Positions 1,581 to 11,639 of a DNA stretch of 20,735 bases are shown in pieces. Under the pieces are notes generated by a model that saw only the letters and a list, made by a program, of their open reading frames with translations, was not told where the DNA came from and made no database searches. Origin of the DNA: a virus; the UHGV virus genome UHGV-0041589; one strand, written 5' to 3'. The number at the start of each line of letters is the position of its first letter. The first letter of the stretch is position 1. A program made the translations under genes and the position numbers.

Positions 1581-1777
1581 TACTGGCTGCGACACTTTTG
1601 AATAAAAGCGTCGACATTTCGGCGCTCATAACGAACTACTTTTGCACTGAAACGAATTGGTGCCAGGATAGCCCGATGACGATGCTTAATATTCCACTCA
1701 CATAGCGTTTTCTGTGTAATACCTAACTTTTGGCATACTTCATCTGGGGTGAGTAAATCGTCGGGTTTCTCGCTCAT
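1577..1777 (-). CDS. AlpA/excisionase-like HTH DNA-binding protein (candidate Xis)
   Basis: 66 aa; LLTPDEVCQKLGITQKTLCEWNIKH...VRYERRNVDAFI matches the AlpA/excisionase HTH pattern. Start ATG overlaps the helicase stop (ATGA). Converges on the integrase stop. Confidence 0.65.
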   Translation of the reverse strand: MSEKPDDLLTPDEVCQKLGITQKTLCEWNIKHRHRAILAPIRFSAKVVRYERRNVDAFIQKCRSQY

Positions 1778-3168
1778 GCTATACCTCTCTTTTTCATGGC
1801 ATCGAGCAGGATGTCCTGCACTGTTCGTTTTGAGTTGCGCCGCTCCATCACCATTTCGTCCATAGTGTCGGCCGCAATAATGTGGTGAATAAATACCGGA
1901 CGATTGTGTCCGGCCTGTATCTGCCTGGTGGGGCCGATACGTTCAATAATTTGCTGATACTGCTCCAGGTCCCACCAGTGTGAGAAAAATACCAGTATGT
2001 TTCCGCCGTCCTGCATGTTCAGACCGTGGCCCGCGCTGGCTGGGTGTGCAAAGAGAACAGGAATCTTTCCGGAATTCCAGTCGCGCAGTGTCTGTGGATC
2101 TTGGTCGAGGTGACGACCGCGAGGGAATGCTTTAAGCAAGCGTTCAAGATCGTGTTTCCAGTGATAAGCAACCAGCACAGGTGCGCCAGCTGCTTCGGTC
2201 AGTATGCTGTCCAGCGCTTGTAGTTTGGTGTCATGCAGTTCTGACCAACTTCCGGTGTCGTCTGTGTATACTGCGCCACTGGCGATTTGCAGACACTTCA
2301 GTGTCTTTGCCGCGGCGTTTGGTGCTTCGATGCCTTCGCCGTTCAGCTCGAGGAACATTTCCTTTTCCATTTCACGATACTGCTGACGGGCCTTCGGCGG
2401 CATATCCACGCGGATTACGTTATGGATGGGGTCTTTGATATCGAACCAGTCGGCCGCATCCAGCGAGAGGGTCACATCGGCTAACGCTCGCTGTATTTCA
2501 GCATGTGAGTGAGCAAACGGCTCCAGTTTGGTCCAGCTCTGCCCCGGAAACTGTATCGAGTTGAACCAGCGTGAGGTAAACGCGCCGTAAGTGCGCCCGA
2601 GACGTTGCCCCTGGTCCACAAACCACAATTGTCCCCACAAATCTACCAGGCCGTTCGGTGCTGGCGTACCGGTGAGATTTATCCAGCGCTGGACATACTT
2701 ATGCGCCACTTTGCCCAGCGCCGCCGCGCGCTTACCACCACCTCGCAGCCGGAAGGATTTTAGCCGGGTGCTTTCATCTGGAATGACAGTACCGAACGGC
2801 CATCGTTCTCCCAATTCCTCAACCAGCCAGACAAGGTTATCGTAGTTGATGGTGAACACGCTCGCGTTGCTGTTCGCCAGCGCTGCAGAGCGTGCTTTGG
2901 CGTTACCAACAATCGGCTGCACCTCGATATTGCGCAGATGCCCCCATTTCAGCGCTTCATCCGGCCATGTGCTTGCTGCAACGCGTAGGGGCGCGAGGAC
3001 CAGCGCGGGCTGTGTCTCTGAGCCCGCCATGAAAAGATCTTCCAGCGTGGTGAGTGTCGCTACGGTTTTACCCATCCCCATCCCTGCCCAGATGTTGCAG
3101 CGGTGAATGTCGATTTCGTGGTTGATAATTAGATCTTGGTAGGGGCGAGGCGTGAAAACTTTGGGCAT
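1774..3168 (-). CDS. SNF2-family DEAD/DEAH-like helicase
   Basis: 464 aa; RPYQ motif, Walker A GMGKT, DEST box (IPDESTRLK), C-terminal helicase motif HPASAGHGLNMQ. Confidence 0.85.
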   Translation of the reverse strand: MPKVFTPRPYQDLIINHEIDIHRCNIWAGMGMGKTVATLTTLEDLFMAGSETQPALVLAPLRVAASTWPDEALKWGHLRNIEVQPIVGNAKARSAALANSNASVFTINYDNLVWLVEELGERWPFGTVIPDESTRLKSFRLRGGGKRAAALGKVAHKYVQRWINLTGTPAPNGLVDLWGQLWFVDQGQRLGRTYGAFTSRWFNSIQFPGQSWTKLEPFAHSHAEIQRALADVTLSLDAADWFDIKDPIHNVIRVDMPPKARQQYREMEKEMFLELNGEGIEAPNAAAKTLKCLQIASGAVYTDDTGSWSELHDTKLQALDSILTEAAGAPVLVAYHWKHDLERLLKAFPRGRHLDQDPQTLRDWNSGKIPVLFAHPASAGHGLNMQDGGNILVFFSHWWDLEQYQQIIERIGPTRQIQAGHNRPVFIHHIIAADTMDEMVMERRNSKRTVQDILLDAMKKRGIA

Positions 3169-3202: not shown

Positions 3203-3523
3203 ATGGCTACTTTGTTAACATCAGGGTTAACTGTTCCGGAGTATTACAAAAATGGTGGAGTGCTCGACTTTGAACTGGATGCTTTAGAGGTGGGCGGGAA
3301 TAGCACTGATTTTGAAAATTACCCTTCACTGGTAAACATTCTTTCTAAAGGTTTCGAGCTTCCTGCTACATCTATGGTTAGCGATCCAAAATTTTTAGCC
3401 CCAATACTAGTTTATGGGGACTTCTGGACAAAACTTCATGCTTATACTTATGCCATGGGCGGCTCCGTTGTATATAAGCAATTACCTTCTGGACGGTATC
3501 ATGCCAGATGTGAGTGGCATTAA
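3203..3523 (+). CDS. Hypothetical protein (106 aa), AT-rich moron antisense to the surrounding operon
   Basis: Strong RBS (AGGAGG) 7-8 nt upstream of ATG 3203. Visibly lower GC than its neighbours. Diverges from the helicase start (3168) and overlaps the C5-MTase stop by 3-4 nt. No recognisable motifs. Confidence 0.6.
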   Translation: MATLLTSGLTVPEYYKNGGVLDFELDALEVGGNSTDFENYPSLVNILSKGFELPATSMVSDPKFLAPILVYGDFWTKLHAYTYAMGGSVVYKQLPSGRYHARCEWH

Positions 3524-4548
3524 ATAAGGTCGTATCCTGCGCATTCCATAAACGAGCGGATGAATGTTGCGGCAGCTGGTGCGACTATCGCGTTGCCGTA
3601 GGCGCGCAGTCGTCCCACTCTGGAGGTAATCCCATTAGCCAACGGGCATGTGCCGGATTCAACTGGCCGCCAGCGACCATCCCGGCAGAGGAGCCAGTCA
3701 GCACCATCCCAGCAGCCGTTAATCGTATTGGGCCGCAGATTCTCGCAGCGCCGCCGAGGGTCGTTCCCCGTTCGGTATGATTGGCCGCTGCGCCCTCGGC
3801 ACGAACTTGGTTGTTGTCGATCGTCGTCACTGTCGGCCATCCCGCTAATCTGGATAGTCCCGCTAAGGTTTCTAGACCGCGTTTTGTCTCCGGCTGTGGG
3901 TTTGTGTTGCAGGTTGGGGTGTACCACCCCGCTAGGTGAGCAAAATTCCGCAGGGAGCTGTGTAGCGTGTTGCCGGACGGTCGACGATCTCCAGACATCT
4001 TCCTCAATGCTATTGAGGCGCTTTCGCCACCGCTGTGATCGCTCGCCGCTGGCGTCGGCCACCCAATACGCTCTATCTCGGATATGCGGGGCACCGACGC
4101 CCGCAGCCGGAAACGGGACAAGCCCAAAGGCGTAGTCCACTGCTTCCACGTCAGTTTGTACAAGATCGAACCAGGCATTGACTCCCGCAACCTGTTCGCC
4201 AAATACCAGCTTAGGGCGTCGCTCGCTGATGAGGTGGAATAGTGCTGGCCATAGGTGCCGCTCGTCATCAAACCCAGCGCCTTTACCAGCCGAGCTGAAA
4301 GGCTGGCACGGGCAACTTCCTGTCCAGACCGGTTTGTTATCCGGCCATCCGGCCAGACGCAGAGCATAAGACCAGACGCCGATCCCGGCGAAGAAATGGC
4401 ACTGTGTGAATCCGCGCAAGTCGTCTGGTGCGACATCTTCGATACTCCTTTCATCAACTTCACCCGGGGCGATATGACCTGCAGCAATAAGGTTACGCAG
4501 CCATTGTGCTGCGTTAGGGTCTATTTCGTTGTAATAGGCTCCCCGCAC
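3520..4548 (-). CDS. DNA (cytosine-5)-methyltransferase
   Basis: Motif I FAGIG, catalytic motif [14 protein letters not shown]-like FGEQV, C-terminal AYGNAIV. Arg-rich central variable region consistent with a target-recognition domain. Confidence 0.85.
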
Positions 4549-4817
4549 AATATCCCCTCCAGATTTTTGCTATCTAATACCACCACGGTAAAGCCCAACG
4601 CGCGCAGCCGTTCGTGCTCGCGTAACTGGTCAGGCCGTGGTGGTTTGCTTGGCGCTTTGCATTCGACAAAGACGATGCGACCGCCGGGTAGCAGGACAAT
4701 GCGATCCGGTACCGAGCGGCGACCGGGTGACACGAACTTAAAGGCGACCCCGCCAGCCTTTTTCACTTCGGCGACGAGGTGCTTTTCGATAAGGCTTTCA
4801 CGTTCGTAGGCCATCAT
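4521..4817 (-). CDS. VRR-NUC domain nuclease
   Basis: Start chosen at the internal ATGATG (4817..4812) because ATG 4817..4815 overlaps the upstream MTase stop TGA 4816..4814; the longer ORF to 4940 would overlap the MTase out of frame. Pattern VAFKFVSPGRRSVPDRIVLLPGGRIVFVECKAP...LREHE matches VRR-NUC. Confidence 0.75.
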   Translation of the reverse strand: MMAYERESLIEKHLVAEVKKAGGVAFKFVSPGRRSVPDRIVLLPGGRIVFVECKAPSKPPRPDQLREHERLRALGFTVVVLDSKNLEGILCGEPITTK

Positions 4818-5296
4818 TCCACACCTTTGACGAAAATAACCCAGTGGGTTTTGTCGGCTTTTCCGGTTCGTTGCCATATGGCCGGCTTCTCGTCGGTCAG
4901 CGCCAAGATATTGCTTACCGGGATCTGCGTTTCGTTCCATTTGAATATGAGTACACCGTGGGGCCGCAATACCCTGAATGCTTCGGCGAAGCCGTCGCGA
5001 AGATCATCGCGCCATGTTTCTTTGTTGAGCCGCCCGTACTTTTTCCTCATCCATGCGTTATCGCCGACGCGCTCGAGGTGCGGCGGATCGAAAACGACGA
5101 CAGGGAAAGTGTTATCGGCAAAGGGAAGGGCGCGGAAATCAGCTATAAGGTCCGGACTTATAACCAACTGGCGACCGTCGCAAAGCTCATGCTGCTCGGC
5201 GCGGATATCACTGAACACGGCGCGCTTGTCCTCCTTGTCGAACCAAAACATACGAGAGCCGCAGCACATGTCAAGAATGGTCTGCTCACAAGTCAT
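4814..5296 (-). CDS. DNA amino-methyltransferase (N6-adenine or N4-cytosine type; DPPH motif)
   Basis: 160 aa; SAM-binding motif I-like LDMCCGS followed by VVVFDPPH (motif IV). Motif order I then IV. Confidence 0.7.
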   Translation of the reverse strand: MTCEQTILDMCCGSRMFWFDKEDKRAVFSDIRAEQHELCDGRQLVISPDLIADFRALPFADNTFPVVVFDPPHLERVGDNAWMRKKYGRLNKETWRDDLRDGFAEAFRVLRPHGVLIFKWNETQIPVSNILALTDEKPAIWQRTGKADKTHWVIFVKGVE

Positions 5297-5507
5297 CGCT
5301 CACCGCCTTACGCTTTTCGCGCATGTTCTGCATCAGACAAAAATCAGACCGGCGTTCGCTCCAGTCCTGATTCAGTTCGTTACGTGACTGGCGGTTAGCC
5401 TTGGCCCAGACCTTCGCTGCCCGGTCATATTCGCCGGACTGCTCAAGGCGCAAGGCCTCCCTCGCAGCCCGGTAATAAAGCGGACTGTCCCGATATTTAA
5501 ATGACAT
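5286..5507 (-). CDS. Small protein (73 aa), possibly ANR-family-like small regulator
   Basis: Start at internal ATG 5507 with RBS AGGAG 8 nt upstream; the longer ORF to 5633 would overlap the upstream gene. AAKVWAKA...NELNQDWSERRSDFC resembles the ANR small-regulator pattern as I recall it; unverified. Confidence 0.5.
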   Translation of the reverse strand: MSFKYRDSPLYYRAAREALRLEQSGEYDRAAKVWAKANRQSRNELNQDWSERRSDFCLMQNMREKRKAVSDDL

Positions 5508-5512
5508 AGGGG

Positions 5513-5716
5513 TTACTCCTGCTTTGCTTCGATTGGGCGGATGCTGCTCAGCACCAGACGAGTGCGGACACCGACAGCACCACCGCGGCGGCCAGTGTCT
5601 TTGTAGTAATACTCTTTTGGGCCAGCCACCCACGTTGTCGCGTTTTGATGCAATTGCACCTGCTTTTCACCGGTGCGGGTAATAACCGTTCCGGTATGCG
5701 TTTTGATTACAGTCAT
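5513..5716 (-). CDS. Hypothetical protein (67 aa)
   Basis: ATG 5 nt after the PolA stop, AAGGA about 9 nt upstream; stop TAA 6 nt before the next start. Tight operon packing supports it being real. Confidence 0.5.
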   Translation of the reverse strand: MTVIKTHTGTVITRTGEKQVQLHQNATTWVAGPKEYYYKDTGRRGGAVGVRTRLVLSSIRPIEAKQE

Positions 5717-5721
5717 AGCGA

Positions 5722-7785
5722 TTAATCCTTACGGTAGTGGTACGCCTCAAAACCGCCAGCGTTCAGTGGGATATCGGGCGCCCATTCGGGGTTAGTGGAG
5801 AGAAGCGCGGAAAGCGCTTTATCGTTGAAATCTTCTGTGTCAGGTGCTTCGGTGATCACCTCGTCGTGTACCGTCAGCACAATGCTGTAACCGGCATCTT
5901 CGATAAGCGGCATGTTTCCGGCCAGAACGTCGCGGGCGGCCGCCTGGGTGACGTTCTCTACCAGCTTTCCGCCGTAGGTTTTGAGTCGTTGCCATTTACG
6001 CGAATAAGAGTTAACACCCATATAGGTGATATTCCCTTTTTCGATAACCGGAGAGGGGTAGCATACAGCGCGTCCGGATGGTAGCTGTATGCGCAGCCAC
6101 GCGCCATCGCGGCGGATTTTAAGATAACCGCAATACAATGTTTTTTGCGGTGTGGCGATTGCAGTGCGGACGGTGCGCTCCAGTTCGTACCAGAAATCGC
6201 AGGTCGCCGGGTGCGCCCTGCGCCACAGGCGCTTGAGCGAGTCACATGCGATGAATACACGCTCGGACAGGCCAAAGGTCGACTTACGTTTAACCGATTC
6301 GTTGTACCAGCTTTTCGCCTCGCGGATAACATCGCGGGGAATGTTTGGCAGTGCGGCGTTCGCCAGCTCGTCGAGATCGAGACCGTAAACCAGAGCAAAA
6401 GTGATGAAAGCCGATACACCACCTCCATAACCCAGACCGAGTTCCATGACTTTACCGATCTGACGCATGTGTTTATCAACATCATCTGGTGCAATATCGA
6501 AAGCTTTTGCATACGCCAGTTTATATAAGTCCGGACCCGTTCCGGCGTCGTACTCTCTGAATGCATTCAGTTTCCATTCTTCTCCCGCCAGCCATGCCAG
6601 CATACGGCCTTCAATGTTCGACAAGTCACTTACCACCAGTTTTTTGCCTGTTGGCGCGATAATGCAGCCACGTAACGCTGAACTGGTTAGTTCCATGATA
6701 TTGTCAAACAGCAGGTCTGCACATCCGGCTTTCAGTGCTTCGATGCCTTCGTCTATTTGTTCCTGTTTTAGTGAAGGGCGGGGAAGGTTCTGGGGCTGGA
6801 ATAGCCGTCCGGCCCAACGACCGGTACGTGACGCCCCGCAGAACTGTAGCGTACCGCGTAAGCGCCCGTCGTGGCTTACGCCTTTCATCAGTGCCTTGTA
6901 TTTACTGGTGCTGGTAGTACTGGCCTGCAGGCGGATAGCCAGCAGTTCTTTCACGGCAGATGGTAAATCGGGGTCGGCTATACGACGTTCCAGAGTACTG
7001 CGTTGCATGTCTGGTAGCTCCACACCGTAGGATTCAACGATGTGCTTAATCAACGCGTCCCGTTGTGTTGCTGCCTGCACTTCGCCATCAGTCATTTCCT
7101 GTGTACGCTTTGCCAGGCGCTTTTGCTCCTGGTCTACCGCTTCGATCGCAGCGCGCGCGAGTTGAATGTCCATGCAGACGCCCCGGTCGTTGATCTGCTG
7201 ATCACGATGCCAGAGCGCCAGTTCTGTCCCCTGATAATTCCACTTCGGCAGACGTTTATAGACTTCGCGCATTGCCTCGATATCCAGTCCGGCGTAAGCA
7301 ACAAAGCGCCGCCATTCTTCCGGGTGGGTTTTGCTGGTGGCCCGGCGCAGTTTGCTGTTTTTCGGGCGTGGCTTACAGAACAGCTGGATCAGCGCTTTAC
7401 CTTCTTTGTCCTTCGCTTTGTCTTGCGGGACGCCTAGTACTTCGCAGAGTTCCCCCAGAGACCCCGGGAGACCGTGCGCCAGCGCCTGCACCATTGTGTC
7501 GCGCCAACGTTCGACTGGCGGTGCCAGGCGCGGCATTGCATAACGCAGGACGGTGCGGTCGAAGTGAGAGTTATGAAAATAAAGCAGGGTTTCAGGGGCT
7601 GCGATTGCTTCGTATAAGCCGTGTGGAATACCACCACCGGCAGTGATATCCCACACGTTTACGGGCTCGTCGTTGATAGCCCATGCGAACAGCATCACTT
7701 CAACGCCTTCGGCATACGCATGGGTACCGTTCGTAATAGGGATTTCGCAATAGGTTTCTAGGTCACCCCATAGTATATTGGACAT
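5722..7785 (-). CDS. Family-A (Pol I-like) DNA polymerase with N-terminal 3'-5' exonuclease domain
   Basis: 687 aa; exo motif LWGDLETY near the N-terminus, motif [17 protein letters not shown], motif C LTVHDEV. Confidence 0.9.
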
Positions 7786-8178: not shown

Positions 8179-8832
8179 TTAAGCATCTACCCCTTCGTCA
8201 GAAGGGAGGCCGATCATTTCGTTGAGAGTTTCGCGTCGTATAGCTGGCGGAAGCGGAGCAGATGGTGCATCGGCTGGCAGAAGTTCTTTAGCTTCAGGCC
8301 ACTCTTCCAGCAGGCGCTTAACTGTGCGCACTTTACTGAGTGCAGCGCTGACATTCTGTCGAATGTCTGACTCATCGCTCTGTATCTGCTCATAAAGTGT
8401 ATCAAACCCGTAAAACTCTGTAACTAGAGGGTCATTTGCCAGAAGGGTAAATTCCCCCGGCGCGATTTTGTGAATATGGTCTGGTGACCCTGATTCATAT
8501 CCTCGGTAGTTACCGTTGAAATAGACGGTAACCCGAGAACCTGCCAGATTCAGACACATGTAACACTCTTCCCTGATAATGTTATTGGCGGTTTTTAATG
8601 CTTCGGGGAATTTTGATACCAGTGTTTCTATTTTTTTTATATTTTTTAATATTTCAGCTTCTTTCTCTACGCCCCCGATAGCTGCAAGCCGAACACGTTC
8701 GGCCCATTCAACACGAGCAGCTCGTAGTGCTGATTTACGTTTGGGGATACCCGCTTTCTCAAGTGCGTTATTGATGATTTGAGTTTTAAGGTAATTAGTT
8801 AATACGGGCTGTGACATTATTCTTTCCCTCAT
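8179..8832 (-). CDS. Hypothetical protein (about 212-217 aa); start ambiguous (ATG 8832 or ATG 8817)
   Basis: Long ORF with lower GC than the core replication genes; Lys/Glu-rich helical N-terminal half, no recognisable catalytic motif. Both candidate ATGs have a GA-rich SD-like sequence upstream. Confidence 0.55.
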   Translation of the reverse strand: MRERIMSQPVLTNYLKTQIINNALEKAGIPKRKSALRAARVEWAERVRLAAIGGVEKEAEILKNIKKIETLVSKFPEALKTANNIIREECYMCLNLAGSRVTVYFNGNYRGYESGSPDHIHKIAPGEFTLLANDPLVTEFYGFDTLYEQIQSDESDIRQNVSAALSKVRTVKRLLEEWPEAKELLPADAPSAPLPPAIRRETLNEMIGLPSDEGVDA

Positions 8833-8868
8833 GAGATCCCCCAGCACGCAGCTGGGGGATGAATATTT

Positions 8869-9417
8869 TTAAATTAGTGCTTCAGCATCAGCACCTTCGC
8901 TGATATCGTCGAAATCGTCAGCGCTTGCCACTCCGCCGCCAGCGAATGCATCGCCGTCTCGCAGGAACTGGACTCCGCCGAGTGAGGCATTAATGCGTTT
9001 ACCGAAATTATTGTCCTGTGCCCAGATATCGATAACGGCGTTTACATAGCACCCTGCATAGGGACGTCCATCAGCCTGAATTAGTGGCGAACGATCGCGA
9101 TCAAGAACAGCTGGGCGCGCTTTGTTAGCAGCGTTCAGGAAGAAATTGCCGGGAAAGCCTTCATACTCTGCTTTTTCATCACCATCATGCAGGCACAGAT
9201 TGAGTTTTTTCTCCAGCTGGTTATAAATGGACTCCCACTTCTCCCCCCATTTTTCCTTCGCTACCTGCTTCATAGCTTTACGGATTTCTTCCAGTTGTGG
9301 GTGTTTGGGAGACATTAAAAATACTGCGGAGAAACGCGGATCGCCTTCGCCGTTTACAGTTTTAGCTTCAAACAGAGACGGGAAGGCCAGACGAACATTG
9401 TTCAGCTTCAGTTTCAT
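8869..9417 (-). CDS. DUF2815-like protein (putative phage ssDNA-binding protein) with acidic SSB-like C-terminal tail
   Basis: 182 aa; N-terminus MKLKLNNVRLAFPSLFEAK; C-terminus DDFDDISEGADAEALI. AAGGA RBS 9 nt upstream. Stop is 13 nt after the DUF2800 gene. Confidence 0.7.
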   Translation of the reverse strand: MKLKLNNVRLAFPSLFEAKTVNGEGDPRFSAVFLMSPKHPQLEEIRKAMKQVAKEKWGEKWESIYNQLEKKLNLCLHDGDEKAEYEGFPGNFFLNAANKARPAVLDRDRSPLIQADGRPYAGCYVNAVIDIWAQDNNFGKRINASLGGVQFLRDGDAFAGGGVASADDFDDISEGADAEALI

Positions 9418-9432
9418 GGGGATTTCCTTAAA

Positions 9433-10734
9433 TCAGATGAGGTCTGCGGTTAGCGTATCGTCGGATACGTCGTCGAAATCATTTACAGGGTTGATATTGA
9501 GTGCGGGGCGTGGGTCTGACTCGGGAACGACGGTGGGTTTACCATCAGCTCGTGTTATCAGTGCCTCGACTTTTGACCAACGGCGCGGACTGGCCTTTTT
9601 GATAAGTTTTTCGGCTTTTGTGGGACTAATAAGTTTAAAGTCGAATACTTCTTCAGTTTTGTACCTGAACTGGTCCTTCAGAAGTGCGCGAGCTGCCTCT
9701 TCATCACTCCAGGCCCGGTTACCTTGTTTTCCTGTTACCAGTTTAAACCCCGGTACCGGATGTCCGGCATTGAGTTCATTGTGAACCCGGTCCCGTACTG
9801 CCTTTAGCCAGGACTCAATAAAGTCGGTCTGGCTATAGATCTCCGCAAGCTGCTCAATGGTTAACAGAGGTACACGTGCGCTGGCATTGGTGATTATTTC
9901 GCTGACAGGCTTTGTCAGATCTTCAAAGTCGCTGGCCGCTGTTTGTAAATGCTGCATTTTCTGGGCAGTGCAAATAGCTTTTGCTTTACAGAAGCGGCAC
10001 TGTTTTTCTCCAGGTATGAAGTTTTCCAGCGGTAGTGTCTCAATGCCTTCGCATTCAGCAATATTGAGAACAAGGATCGCACTGGTTGCGGCCTCCTGTG
10101 CCCGTTCACCGAACGCCTGGAGCTCTTCCACCGTCAGAGCCCACTCTGAAACGTGGTTAAGCCGCGGCTGGTGAATAAATAATCTTACAGTCTCAAAGTC
10201 ATACAGCATGCTGAATTGTTCGAGCGCACCCAGAGCATACAGTTGTAGTTGCTCATTTTGTTCTGCATCAATGCGGACGCCTTTGCCATATTTCAGGTCG
10301 TGGATTTGTAATTCGCTACCAGCAATGATTATGCTGTCGGCAGTTCCGAAAGATTCTTCCACACCCGTTATATGGGAGAAGTCGACACGCTGCTCGACCA
10401 GCAGCTCATTGCCCTGCGCCAGCGCCCAAACAGTGTCGACGTAACGACCAACGGCTTCGACCATTTCCTCATCTACCTGCGGGCCGGAAGTATCATCCGG
10501 GTGCTCAGCAAGAGGATAGGATCCAAGGAACATCGCGACGTTGCAACCTGCATAGTGCTCCGGGTGGCTCTGGCGGTTGCGCAGCACCTTTTCGGCAAGT
10601 GCATGCGCTGCAGTGCCCTCGATTGCAAAAGTTGTTTCTTTATCCGGTTGTGTGGCCTCCAGCGCCAGACTTCCTGGGCAGCGCATCCATCGATGCGCTG
10701 ATGATGGAGAAAGTTGTGCATGAACGTCTGGCAT
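9433..10734 (-). CDS. DUF2800-like PD-(D/E)XK nuclease (Cas4/RecB-like, Cys-cluster)
   Basis: 433 aa; N-terminal [16 protein letters not shown]-terminal [13 protein letters not shown] cysteine cluster (Cas4-like Fe-S arrangement), acidic tail [25 protein letters not shown] lies inside the upstream gene's 3' end. Confidence 0.8.
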
Positions 10735-10736
10735 GA

Positions 10737-11639
10737 TTAACCCTCCAGTGCTTTTTCAGCCAGGGTGATTACTTCAGCGAGATTTTCATCCGTTACTTCA
10801 CCAAGTTTCCTGGCTCCCTGTTTTTCCAGAATTGCAATAGCTTCTGCCCGGTAACCCCCTTTTGCTAACTGGAGGATCAACCCTTCAGCTTGTTTGCGTA
10901 GTGCCGCGAAATCAATTGTATGGTCATCTTTGGCGTCATTATTCTGGCTGGAATTTGCTGCGTCTCTGCGTGCAAATTCTTCCTGCAGCTGAAGGTACTC
11001 AACACGGTTGATCTCGATATGGCCTTTTTTAAGCATCTCGTTCAACTTGCGTAAGGTATGGAGTTCACTGGCTGCTGTGCCGGATACATTTTTGACGTAA
11101 AACGGCCCCGTGCGTTCTCCATCTTTGTTACTGGCCTTTTTCGGCTTAACTTCATCACGCCCATCTGCAGGTGCATCAAGTAGCTGCTCGGCAAAAGCAC
11201 GTCGCTCGCCGATGGTTGGCAGGTCGTCCCAGAACTTAAGGATGTTACGGGACAGGTCCAGGAGAGCAGGTTTAAGCAGCGCCCTGGCTCGTTTGACGCC
11301 CTGCAATGCGCTGTCGAGAGCATCAATCTGAACAACTCGTTTATCGCCTTCAGCATCACGGTAGGCAACAGCACGTTGCAGCATGTCTTCTGTGATAGGG
11401 GTGGCTACCGGGTAGAAACCAGCCAGTGCGATAACGTCGCTGAACTCCAGATCATCCAGTGTCATTGCCGCTGACATATTTTCAGTTTCAGTTGCTGTAT
11501 CCCGACATTCCTGCACTCGTGAAATCGTGTCAGGATGCATAACAATGCCTGATGCCATTGTGCGGATAAGACGTTCAAGCAGCGCATTATGTTGTGCCAG
11601 AAGTTGATTATTAAGTTCTAGACTGGTTTCTAAACTCAT
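10737..11639 (-). CDS. Hypothetical protein (300 aa), helical and coiled-coil-like
   Basis: Long ORF; start ATG overlaps the upstream stop (ATGA); stop TAA 2 nt before the DUF2800 start. No motif recognised. Confidence 0.65.

Follow-up and report, generated by a model that had tools for sequence, protein, structure and literature searches.

We analyzed the virus genome UHGV-0041589 as one stretch of 20,735 nucleotides, referred to here as the window, which is 100% identical to a prophage situated beside yfhL/shoB in 14 complete Escherichia coli genomes. On its minus strand, the window carries the gene for a C5-cytosine methyltransferase (C5-MTase; a methyltransferase is abbreviated MTase below). 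This gene contains a second open reading frame (ORF), frame B, which lies in the +1 frame relative to the methyltransferase frame, frame A. The predicted products of frames A and B are termed alpha and beta. The initial annotation of the window had described the C5-MTase, a VRR-NUC nuclease and a second, amino-type MTase as a coupled cassette, and the second reading frame within the C5-MTase gene was overlooked. The following features belong to this gene.

3520-4548, minus strand: C5-cytosine MTase, frame A (alpha), 342 amino acids, GTG start; PCQ, GEQV, RDR and GNAI motifs.
3585-4436, minus strand: frame B ORF (beta), 283 amino acids, +1 relative to frame A and wholly nested in it.
4556-4560, minus strand: GGAGG, Shine-Dalgarno sequence of the frame A GTG, within the 3' end of the VRR-NUC gene; spacing 7 nucleotides (nt).
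4445-4450, minus strand: AAGGAG, Shine-Dalgarno sequence of frame B, 8 nt upstream of the ATG at 4436-4434.
4057-4302, minus strand: dual-constraint segment 1, frame A residues 83-164 (motifs IV-VIII) and frame B residues 46-127.
3721-4041, minus strand: middle segment, in which only frame B, with its WPTP repeats, is under selection; frame A is an open linker.
3625-3720, minus strand: dual-constraint segment 2, frame A residues 277-308 (ending PLANG) and frame B residues 240-271.

The initial lead was an ORF of 300 codons (3585-4487), lying in the +1 frame within the C5-MTase gene, that matched PHROG families. In megablast searches, nucleotide identity of 82-87% to Burkholderia and Erwinia phages was seen only within a stretch of 139 nt (3587-3725), and the identity of 87% to the Burkholderia phages fell in dual-constraint segment 2 alone. 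It was this local match that first pointed to an overlap.

Frame B was recovered by tblastn at full length from 235 phage genomes with about 45% identity, always in the +1 frame relative to the annotated methylase. In BcepC6B, epsilon15, and Haboob it is open, with an identity of 45-49%, and the same two-frame arrangement is present in Rhodobacter phage RcWhiteOak (gp22). More than 4,600 predicted public proteins matched frame B, and none of them carried a Pfam domain among the matches listed. Two sets of loci were compared. Set 1 consisted of 80 viral loci found through frame A; frame B served to find set 2, which consisted of 80 loci in species-representative bacterial genomes. The +1 frame was open in 78 of the 80 loci of set 1, with a median length of 309 codons, and the +2 frame held about 20 stops. 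A frame-B ORF was present in 79/80 loci of set 2; PCQ was encoded in the -1 frame in all 79 of these, and frame A spanned the whole of frame B and ended GNA-like in 77. Over both sets, about 97% of the 160 homologues, which come from alpha-, beta-, and gamma-proteobacteria and their phages, have a frame B that is open and conserved, and the pattern of the open +1 frame held from 53% to 66% G+C.

Selection on the two frames was analyzed with 52 sequences that were less than 90% identical to one another. At the 5' end of the gene, variability was highest at the third codon position of frame A. In the middle (gene nt 540-810), it was the third position of frame B that varied most (H 1.56-1.66), and frame A identity was 0.25-0.28. 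All three positions were constrained at nt 270-540 and 810-960. Synonymous sites were assessed by comparing the codon entropy at columns of conserved residues with that of pooled usage (Hobs/Hpool). For frame A the following ratios were obtained.

Frame A 4-37, upstream of the frame-B ATG: Hobs/Hpool 0.78.
Frame A 39-82, opposite frame B 1-45: Hobs/Hpool 0.72.
Frame A 83-164, opposite frame B 46-127: Hobs/Hpool 0.31.
Frame A 277-308, opposite frame B 240-271: Hobs/Hpool 0.34.
Frame A 310-330, opposite the frame B tail and past its stop: Hobs/Hpool 0.79.

The drop in frame A synonymous variation was significant for residues 83-164 versus 4-37 (P = 1e-8) as well as for residues 277-308 versus 310-330 (P = 7e-5). 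In segment 1, 67% of the conserved columns had one codon in at least 90% of the sequences. Many four-fold sites were invariant, each in 52 of 52 sequences, as at P83 (CCT), V120 (GTT), A149 (GCG), V296 (GTT), and P302 (CCG). The mirror test on frame B gave synonymous ratios of 0.24 for residues 46-127, 0.80 for the WPTP columns of the middle, and 0.35 for residues 236-272. In the middle segment, frame A contained no stop as compared with 2.3 expected from shuffles that were synonymous in frame B. Silent sites in either frame are thus frozen opposite the conserved parts of the other frame and free outside them, which is the mark of true dual coding; neither composition nor RNA structure can account for such a reciprocal pattern. 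In Proteobacteria and their phages, purifying selection almost certainly acts on both frames.

The beginning of frame B also left a trace in the codons of frame A. Codon 38 of frame A (D38) was GAT in 52/52 sequences and supplied the frame-B ATG (4436). Codon 34 (R34) was the rare AGG in 28 and CGG in 16 sequences (44/52 in sum), and codon 35 was AGY in 45. Jointly, codons 34 and 35 yield a GGAG 8 nt upstream of the ATG, and the window sequence reads AAGGAG at this place, within the frame-A peptide DERSIEDV. Among the 79 loci of set 2 with a frame-B ORF, the ATG was present in 79 and a GGAG upstream of it in 67. Beta is regarded as a likely product of separate initiation.

Frame A is related to C5-MTases. 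It matched Pfam PF00145 over residues 76-172 (E 1.5e-12), and its profile aligned by hhalign to motifs IV-VIII of HhaI and HaeIII (probability 95%, E 2.6e-8). Motif IV (PCQ, with the catalytic cysteine), motif VI (ENV-like, GEQV in this protein) and motif VIII (HIRDR) are all present, and motif X is found as YGNAIV at residues 317-322. The N-terminal 78 residues were not aligned to HhaI/HaeIII by hhalign, and a Rossmann-like fold was confidently predicted by AlphaFold2 (AF2). In the N-terminal part, a motif I-like FFAGIG at residues 52-57 is located after NEID (II-like) and DV (III-like) and before PCQ, so that the motif order of the C5 enzyme N terminus (4380-4548, frame A 1-57) looks permuted.

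The AF2 model of alpha, built from an alignment of 98 sequences, showed a Rossmann-type domain with a predicted local distance difference test score (pLDDT) of 70-96 across most of residues 1-80 and 100-150. The catalytic loop (83-94) had low values, and residues 149-155 were below 50. Nearly all of residues 192-319 were also below 50, and a helix at 323-337 reached 82-83. A Foldseek search with the model retrieved M.HhaI, M.HaeIII, DNMT2, and DNMT1 at E values of about 2e-6 over about 167 columns. Conservation of frame A was confined to residues 1-166 and 277-330, and the middle could not be aligned among homologues; residues from about 170 to 276 had a pLDDT of 26-46, and the conserved sequence of that DNA is frame B. 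A target-recognition domain and motif IX were sought between motifs VIII and X on the frame A chain and were not found. As judged from this model, alpha has no conserved target-recognition domain or motif IX and is probably a complete C5 large domain: the large domain with motifs I-VIII, of which I-III are putative, takes up residues 1-165, an unconserved linker residues of about 170-276, and motif X the end.

Beta has a different layout. A weakly constrained part (residues 1-45) is followed by a conserved helix and hairpin (46-125), a series of W-x-T-P repeats, of which there are three in the window protein and 1-6 among homologues, and a conserved end. This C-terminal end is invariant and resembles motif IX (LNPAHSRWLMGLPxEW). 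When the beta profile was compared with HhaI and HaeIII by hhalign, a single match, not significant, was obtained, which placed the end of beta on HhaI motif IX (LHPRECARVMGYPDSYK).

A precedent for such an arrangement exists in M.EcoHK31I, a C5-MTase of two polypeptides with the target YGGCCR. The beta chain of M.EcoHK31I is encoded wholly in another frame of the alpha gene and carries motif IX; its alpha chain has motifs I-VIII as well as X, and both chains are needed for activity (PMC2836561, PMC3404938). M.AquI is a natural heterodimer in which one chain contains motifs I-VIII and the other contains part of the variable region and motifs IX-X (PMC3404938). As in M.EcoHK31I, the window beta is nested wholly in alpha, and alpha keeps motif X and, with I-III putative, motifs I-VIII; the motif-IX-like end of the window beta is a candidate for motif IX. 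Compared by description, the two systems differ in that the alpha chain of M.EcoHK31I keeps its target-recognition domain and the beta chain gives motif IX only, whereas the nested ORF of the window covers 83% of alpha (283 codons) and alpha is without a conserved recognition domain. Furthermore, the window beta adds a conserved N-terminal domain and the variable WPTP repeats. The M.EcoHK31I methyltransferase belongs to a restriction-modification system, whereas the window gene is a phage orphan gene. M.AquI is comparable in that it demonstrates that large- and small-domain functions can sit on separate chains. It is split within the variable region without near-complete nesting, whereas the catalytic chain of the window keeps motif X.

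We propose that two polypeptides would be made from the two frames of the C5-MTase gene, alpha of 342 and beta of 283 amino acids. Alpha would consist of the large domain for SAM (S-adenosylmethionine) binding and catalysis (I-VIII), a disordered linker of about 100 residues at the usual site of target recognition, and the motif X helix. Since alpha has no conserved or folded segment for target recognition and motif IX, it would need a partner for recognition of DNA. Translation of beta would start at its own AAGGAG and ATG within alpha codons 33-39, and the separate polypeptide would join alpha as the DNA-recognition (small-domain) subunit, just as motif IX is contributed by the beta chain in M.EcoHK31I. 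Drawn by analogy, this role of beta as the recognition subunit is one to which we give an even chance.

A more far-reaching version can be considered in view of the multispecific C5-MTases of Bacillus phages SPR, phi3T, and rho11s, in which tandem short target-recognition modules lie between motifs VIII and IX. When the layouts are compared, the 1-6 WPTP repeats of beta occupy the equivalent place, whereas the Bacillus phage enzymes are single chains in one frame. Accordingly phrased, the C5-MTase of the window would be an obligate two-subunit enzyme with its small domain out of frame, and the WPTP repeats would be exchangeable modules that set or multiply specificity. We regard this version as tentative and rather doubtful. 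That each WPTP repeat might recognize a target is speculation.

Natural fusions of the two frames were also looked at. P0018, a chimera of an alpha N terminus and a beta C terminus, was searched against 1.84 billion representative proteins for single-chain ancestors. Of the 19,701 hits, about 20 clusters were full-length chimeras. Such natural A/B chimeras (P0014-P0018; P0241-P0338) are rare, and their junctions occur at varied places. In either half of the alignment built for P0018, misaligned out-of-frame partners made up about 50% of the rows. One chimera, P0304 (L248, 1501-2600), was examined at the DNA level and proved to be a dual-coding gene in which one indel shifted both downstream frames together. 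The full-length matches of P0018 do not count as evidence of an ancestral single-frame family.

Beta might be real and translated and yet have a role unrelated to methylation, for example as an overprinted anti-defense or regulatory protein. We consider this unlikely. In its favor, no known family or fold was matched by beta, the resemblance to motif IX is not significant, and many viral overprinted genes are reported to encode accessory proteins (PMC8227390). Against such a role stand the missing conserved or folded segment for target recognition and motif IX in alpha, the end of beta with a position and pattern like those of motif IX, the precedent of M.EcoHK31I, and the PCQ-bearing frame A, which accompanies beta in 79/79 loci.

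Programmed frameshifting would place both frames on one chain, by a +1 shift from frame A into the repeats and motif IX-like end of frame B, optionally followed by a -1 shift that returns to motif X. The resulting order, alpha (I-VIII), beta (repeats, IX-like) and alpha (X), is the canonical order of motifs, and single-chain A-to-B chimeras exist in nature (P0015, P0017, P0018; about 20 clusters). However, frame B is open and selected for some 80 codons before a shift could be of use, its own Shine-Dalgarno sequence and ATG are conserved, and frame A is open through the entire middle; none of this would be needed for a single chain. The chimera junctions differ in place, and the chimera examined at the DNA level was the dual-coding gene with a single indel. 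No X XXY YYZ heptamer was seen in the short stretch from EWDD to the frame-B stop, which was read by eye, was not scanned systematically and does not take in the A-to-B junction. Frameshifting is thus considered very improbable. That frame B is a non-functional shadow ORF arising from G+C-rich codons and frame A conservation is suggested by the G+C content of the gene (58%) and by the long +1 ORFs of some synonymous shuffles (P rising to 0.14 for the homologues richest in G+C), but is highly improbable in view of the stops in the +2 frame of the same genes, the conservation and periodicity of the middle segment in frame B and not in frame A, the freezing of frame-A synonymous sites only where frame B is conserved, and the persistence of the pattern over the whole G+C range.

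Several points weigh against beta as the partner of alpha or limit the evidence for the overlap. Translation of beta and methylation by either product are predicted. The AF2 model of beta (87-sequence alignment) was poor, with a mean pLDDT of 58 and confident values only at residues of about 70-120, the helix and hairpin, and Foldseek found no fold match to it below an E value of 0.5. No match to beta was obtained in Pfam, which was searched with each of the 87 members at E values up to 10, in NCBIfam, or in the PDB sequences, and the match to motif IX was not significant (E 0.67 over 17 columns). In 6/79 homologues (L017, L036, L042, L043, L053, and L063), at the equivalent of window 4424-4436, TAA directly follows the frame-B ATG, and use of a second ATG, four codons farther downstream, is required; start-stop and then re-initiation may occur in these cases. 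The test for an open frame A used genes that had been pre-selected as intact frame-A ORFs, and the homologues in the tests share phylogeny and are not independent. The per-genome test of ORF length against synonymous shuffles was only moderately significant (P 0.0005-0.14), and for this reason the synonymous-site tests were relied on instead.

The neighborhood of the C5-MTase gene contains the following genes, the minus-strand ones given in their order of transcription and followed by the convergent ORF.

5722-7785, minus strand: family-A DNA polymerase (PolA), first in the transcription order of the region.
5513-5716, minus strand: phrog_1226 small gene, after PolA.
5286-5507, minus strand: ANR-family regulator, a small gene upstream of the 160-residue MTase.
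4814-5296, minus strand: small class-I SAM MTase, 160 amino acids, with LDMCCGS and DPPH; variable cargo of the slot between ANR and VRR-NUC.
4521-4817, minus strand: stand-alone VRR-NUC nuclease, 98 amino acids; backbone gene, probable Holliday-junction resolvase.
1774-3168, minus strand: SNF2-family helicase (Pfam SNF2-rel_dom, 6e-13), backbone neighbor of VRR-NUC.
3203-3523, plus strand: convergent ORF of 106 amino acids, phrog_28127; cargo of the slot between VRR-NUC and SNF2.

The three consecutive minus-strand ORFs of the initial annotation were all found at their coordinates, and the same three genes (MTase, VRR-NUC, and C5-MTase) are called by RefSeq in the E. coli prophages. The overlaps that it described were likewise confirmed: the first ATG of VRR-NUC overlaps the TGA of the small MTase as ATGA, and the 5' end of the C5-MTase gene overlaps the 3' end of VRR-NUC by 28 nt (4521-4548). 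Short start/stop overlaps of this kind are common in phage operons; those of the window are real and statistically unremarkable.

The functional link between the three genes was not supported by comparison. For the mapping of the window proteins, 80 loci from viruses or prophages were taken in which the VRR-NUC shares at least 90% identity with that of the window. The order PolA-ANR-VRR-NUC-SNF2 was constant in essentially all of them. ANR was a constant neighbor of the nuclease (80/80), and SNF2 was present in 80/80, often directly after it. The C5 enzyme occurred in 14 of these loci and the small MTase in 12, in two of which it lay on the opposite side of the nuclease; both MTases flanked the nuclease in only 3, and homologues of both were absent from 62, in which the nuclease is 90-100% identical. 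Viewed from the other side, any VRR-NUC within 6 kb was found in only 8 of 80 C5-family loci, and the contexts of the C5 gene differ in BcepC6B, epsilon15, Haboob, K1ind1, and N15. The gaps on either side of the nuclease hold different genes in different loci, many of them on the opposite strand: a 255-residue MTase with DIPYG, a PAPS-reductase-like protein, Rha-like and Arc/toxin-antitoxin-like genes, membrane proteins, and a 99-residue protein (MIVYVAGPMSG...), which we take to resemble DUF4406.

Both slots, the one from ANR to VRR-NUC and the one from VRR-NUC to SNF2, are cargo hot spots. Because the nuclease backbone is constant and the MTases are sporadic, the latter are swappable cargo beside the nuclease rather than parts of a restriction-like set. 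The three adjacent genes are very likely a mosaic and not a functional unit, and the cassette as originally described is ordinary. VRR-NUC is part of a conserved prophage backbone (VapE, DUF2800, DUF2815, PolA, ANR, VRR-NUC, and SNF2) and would most likely resolve branched DNA. The two MTases would have been acquired independently as cargo in the two variable slots flanking it, and the start/stop overlaps with the nuclease would reflect tight operon packing. It is plausible that the orphan MTases shield the phage DNA from host restriction. A restriction-modification-like module, in which VRR-NUC would cut unmodified DNA and both MTases would protect the phage genome, had been suggested by the adjoining genes with their overlapping start and stop codons, but is most improbable given the 62/80 loci in which the nuclease lacks either MTase homologue, often with SNF2 directly next to it, the 72/80 C5-family loci without VRR-NUC, and the nearest solved relatives of the nuclease, which are structure-specific junction resolvases. 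Adjacency in the cargo slots of phages should not be read as a functional link.

The 3' end of the convergent 106-residue ORF (phrog_28127) overlaps the stop of the C5 gene, and the two genes occurred together in only 3 of the 80 VRR-NUC loci. Remote homologues of this ORF (33-38% identity) fill the same slot in loci without a C5 gene. Farther upstream, in the replication module, a "putative nucleotide modification protein" of the Nmad5 family is annotated in RefSeq next to DUF2815, DUF2800, and a hypothetical gene (8179-8847 and 8869-11639, minus strand). On the basis of this annotation, the phage may carry a further function in DNA modification.

The nuclease itself matched the PDB sequences 4QBO (stNUC, E 1.4e-13) and 4QBN (saNUC, 1.6e-11), and its catalytic pattern PD...E-x-K...Q was aligned with both (VPDRIV, FVECK, and PDQL). 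It matched phrog_93 at 2.5e-31. The score with Pfam VRR_NUC (PF08774) was 16.1 bits (E 0.012), which is below the gathering cut-off of 23.8; RefSeq nevertheless labels the protein as VRR-NUC or PDDEXK nuclease. The Prokaryotic Genome Annotation Pipeline (PGAP) begins the protein at the next ATG (4814) instead of the first. The last residues, about eight, vary with the cargo: matches extended over residues 1-98 beside a C5 gene and otherwise over 1-90 or 1-91. stNUC, saNUC, and psNUC are dimers that cleave four-way (Holliday) junctions (PMC4103454). The window protein is similar in size to stNUC and saNUC (about 92-98 amino acids) with catalytic residues aligned; it differs in its Pfam score below the gathering cut-off and in that its last residues are dictated by the overlapping MTase cargo. 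The initial annotation had offered a junction resolvase as one alternative, and this alternative fits the similarity to dimers that cleave Holliday junctions. VRR-NUC is most likely a junction resolvase, a backbone enzyme of replication and recombination.

The small 160-residue MTase (METHYLTRANSFERASE) contains the SAM motif LDMCCGS at residues 8-14 and DPPH at residues 70-73. It matched phrog_954 (2e-85), and its Pfam matches were limited to the generic class-I models Methyltransf_11 and Methyltransf_25. No NCBIfam model scored above its cut-off, and no PDB sequence was matched, hence no solved relative was found by sequence. The label "DNA methyltransferase" in PHROG and GenBank is annotation only. 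Thus, of the amino-type MTase proposed initially, the SAM and DPPH motifs were confirmed, and a curated model of DNA amino-MTases or a solved relative was not found; the assignment can reasonably be read from the motifs and is putative. At identities of 45-65%, homologues are present in phages that infect Firmicutes, Actinobacteria, Bacteroidetes, Proteobacteria, and haloarchaea, among them Streptococcus, Listeria, Staphylococcus, Gordonia, Corynebacterium, Vibrio, Acinetobacter, Porphyromonas, and Bacteroides phages and haloarchaeal viruses. The spread of this DPPH MTase is unusually universal for an anti-restriction enzyme.

Taking the region as a whole, we favor, with moderate confidence, the explanation that a mosaic region contains a two-frame C5-MTase gene in which beta is the partner of alpha. 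No paper discussing the overlap was found in a search limited to the open-access literature, and an earlier description elsewhere is possible. In GenBank, both ORFs are annotated in a few phages, as in K1ind1 with ORF28 ("Mte8-like") and ORF29 ("C-specific methylase"). Most likely, the nested gene is a much larger, widespread new variant of the M.EcoHK31I arrangement. As a measure of breadth, 3,146 clusters were hit at E values up to 1e-30 by P0018, a query that matches either frame. Gene callers are split on the locus: RefSeq/PGAP annotates frame A only, and others pick frame B as "hypothetical." Because the callers annotate one frame, the gene is missing or mislabeled in thousands of genomes. 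If only the annotated 342-residue protein is used, experiments and predictions would probably deal with an enzyme that lacks target recognition.

Long same-strand overlaps in bacteria and phages are rare and disputed, and for the pair of the window the comparative evidence is unusually clean over a wide divergence. If confirmed, alpha and beta would rank with the longest of the well-supported same-strand gene overlaps in prokaryotic viruses. Should beta prove to be the recognition subunit, the pair would represent a natural, widespread split MTase that is informative on the assembly of C5 enzymes and useful for the engineering of targeted methylation, as has been tried with M.EcoHK31I. If, beyond that, both subunits are obligate, these phages would possess a compact, co-inherited, and possibly multispecific anti-restriction enzyme.

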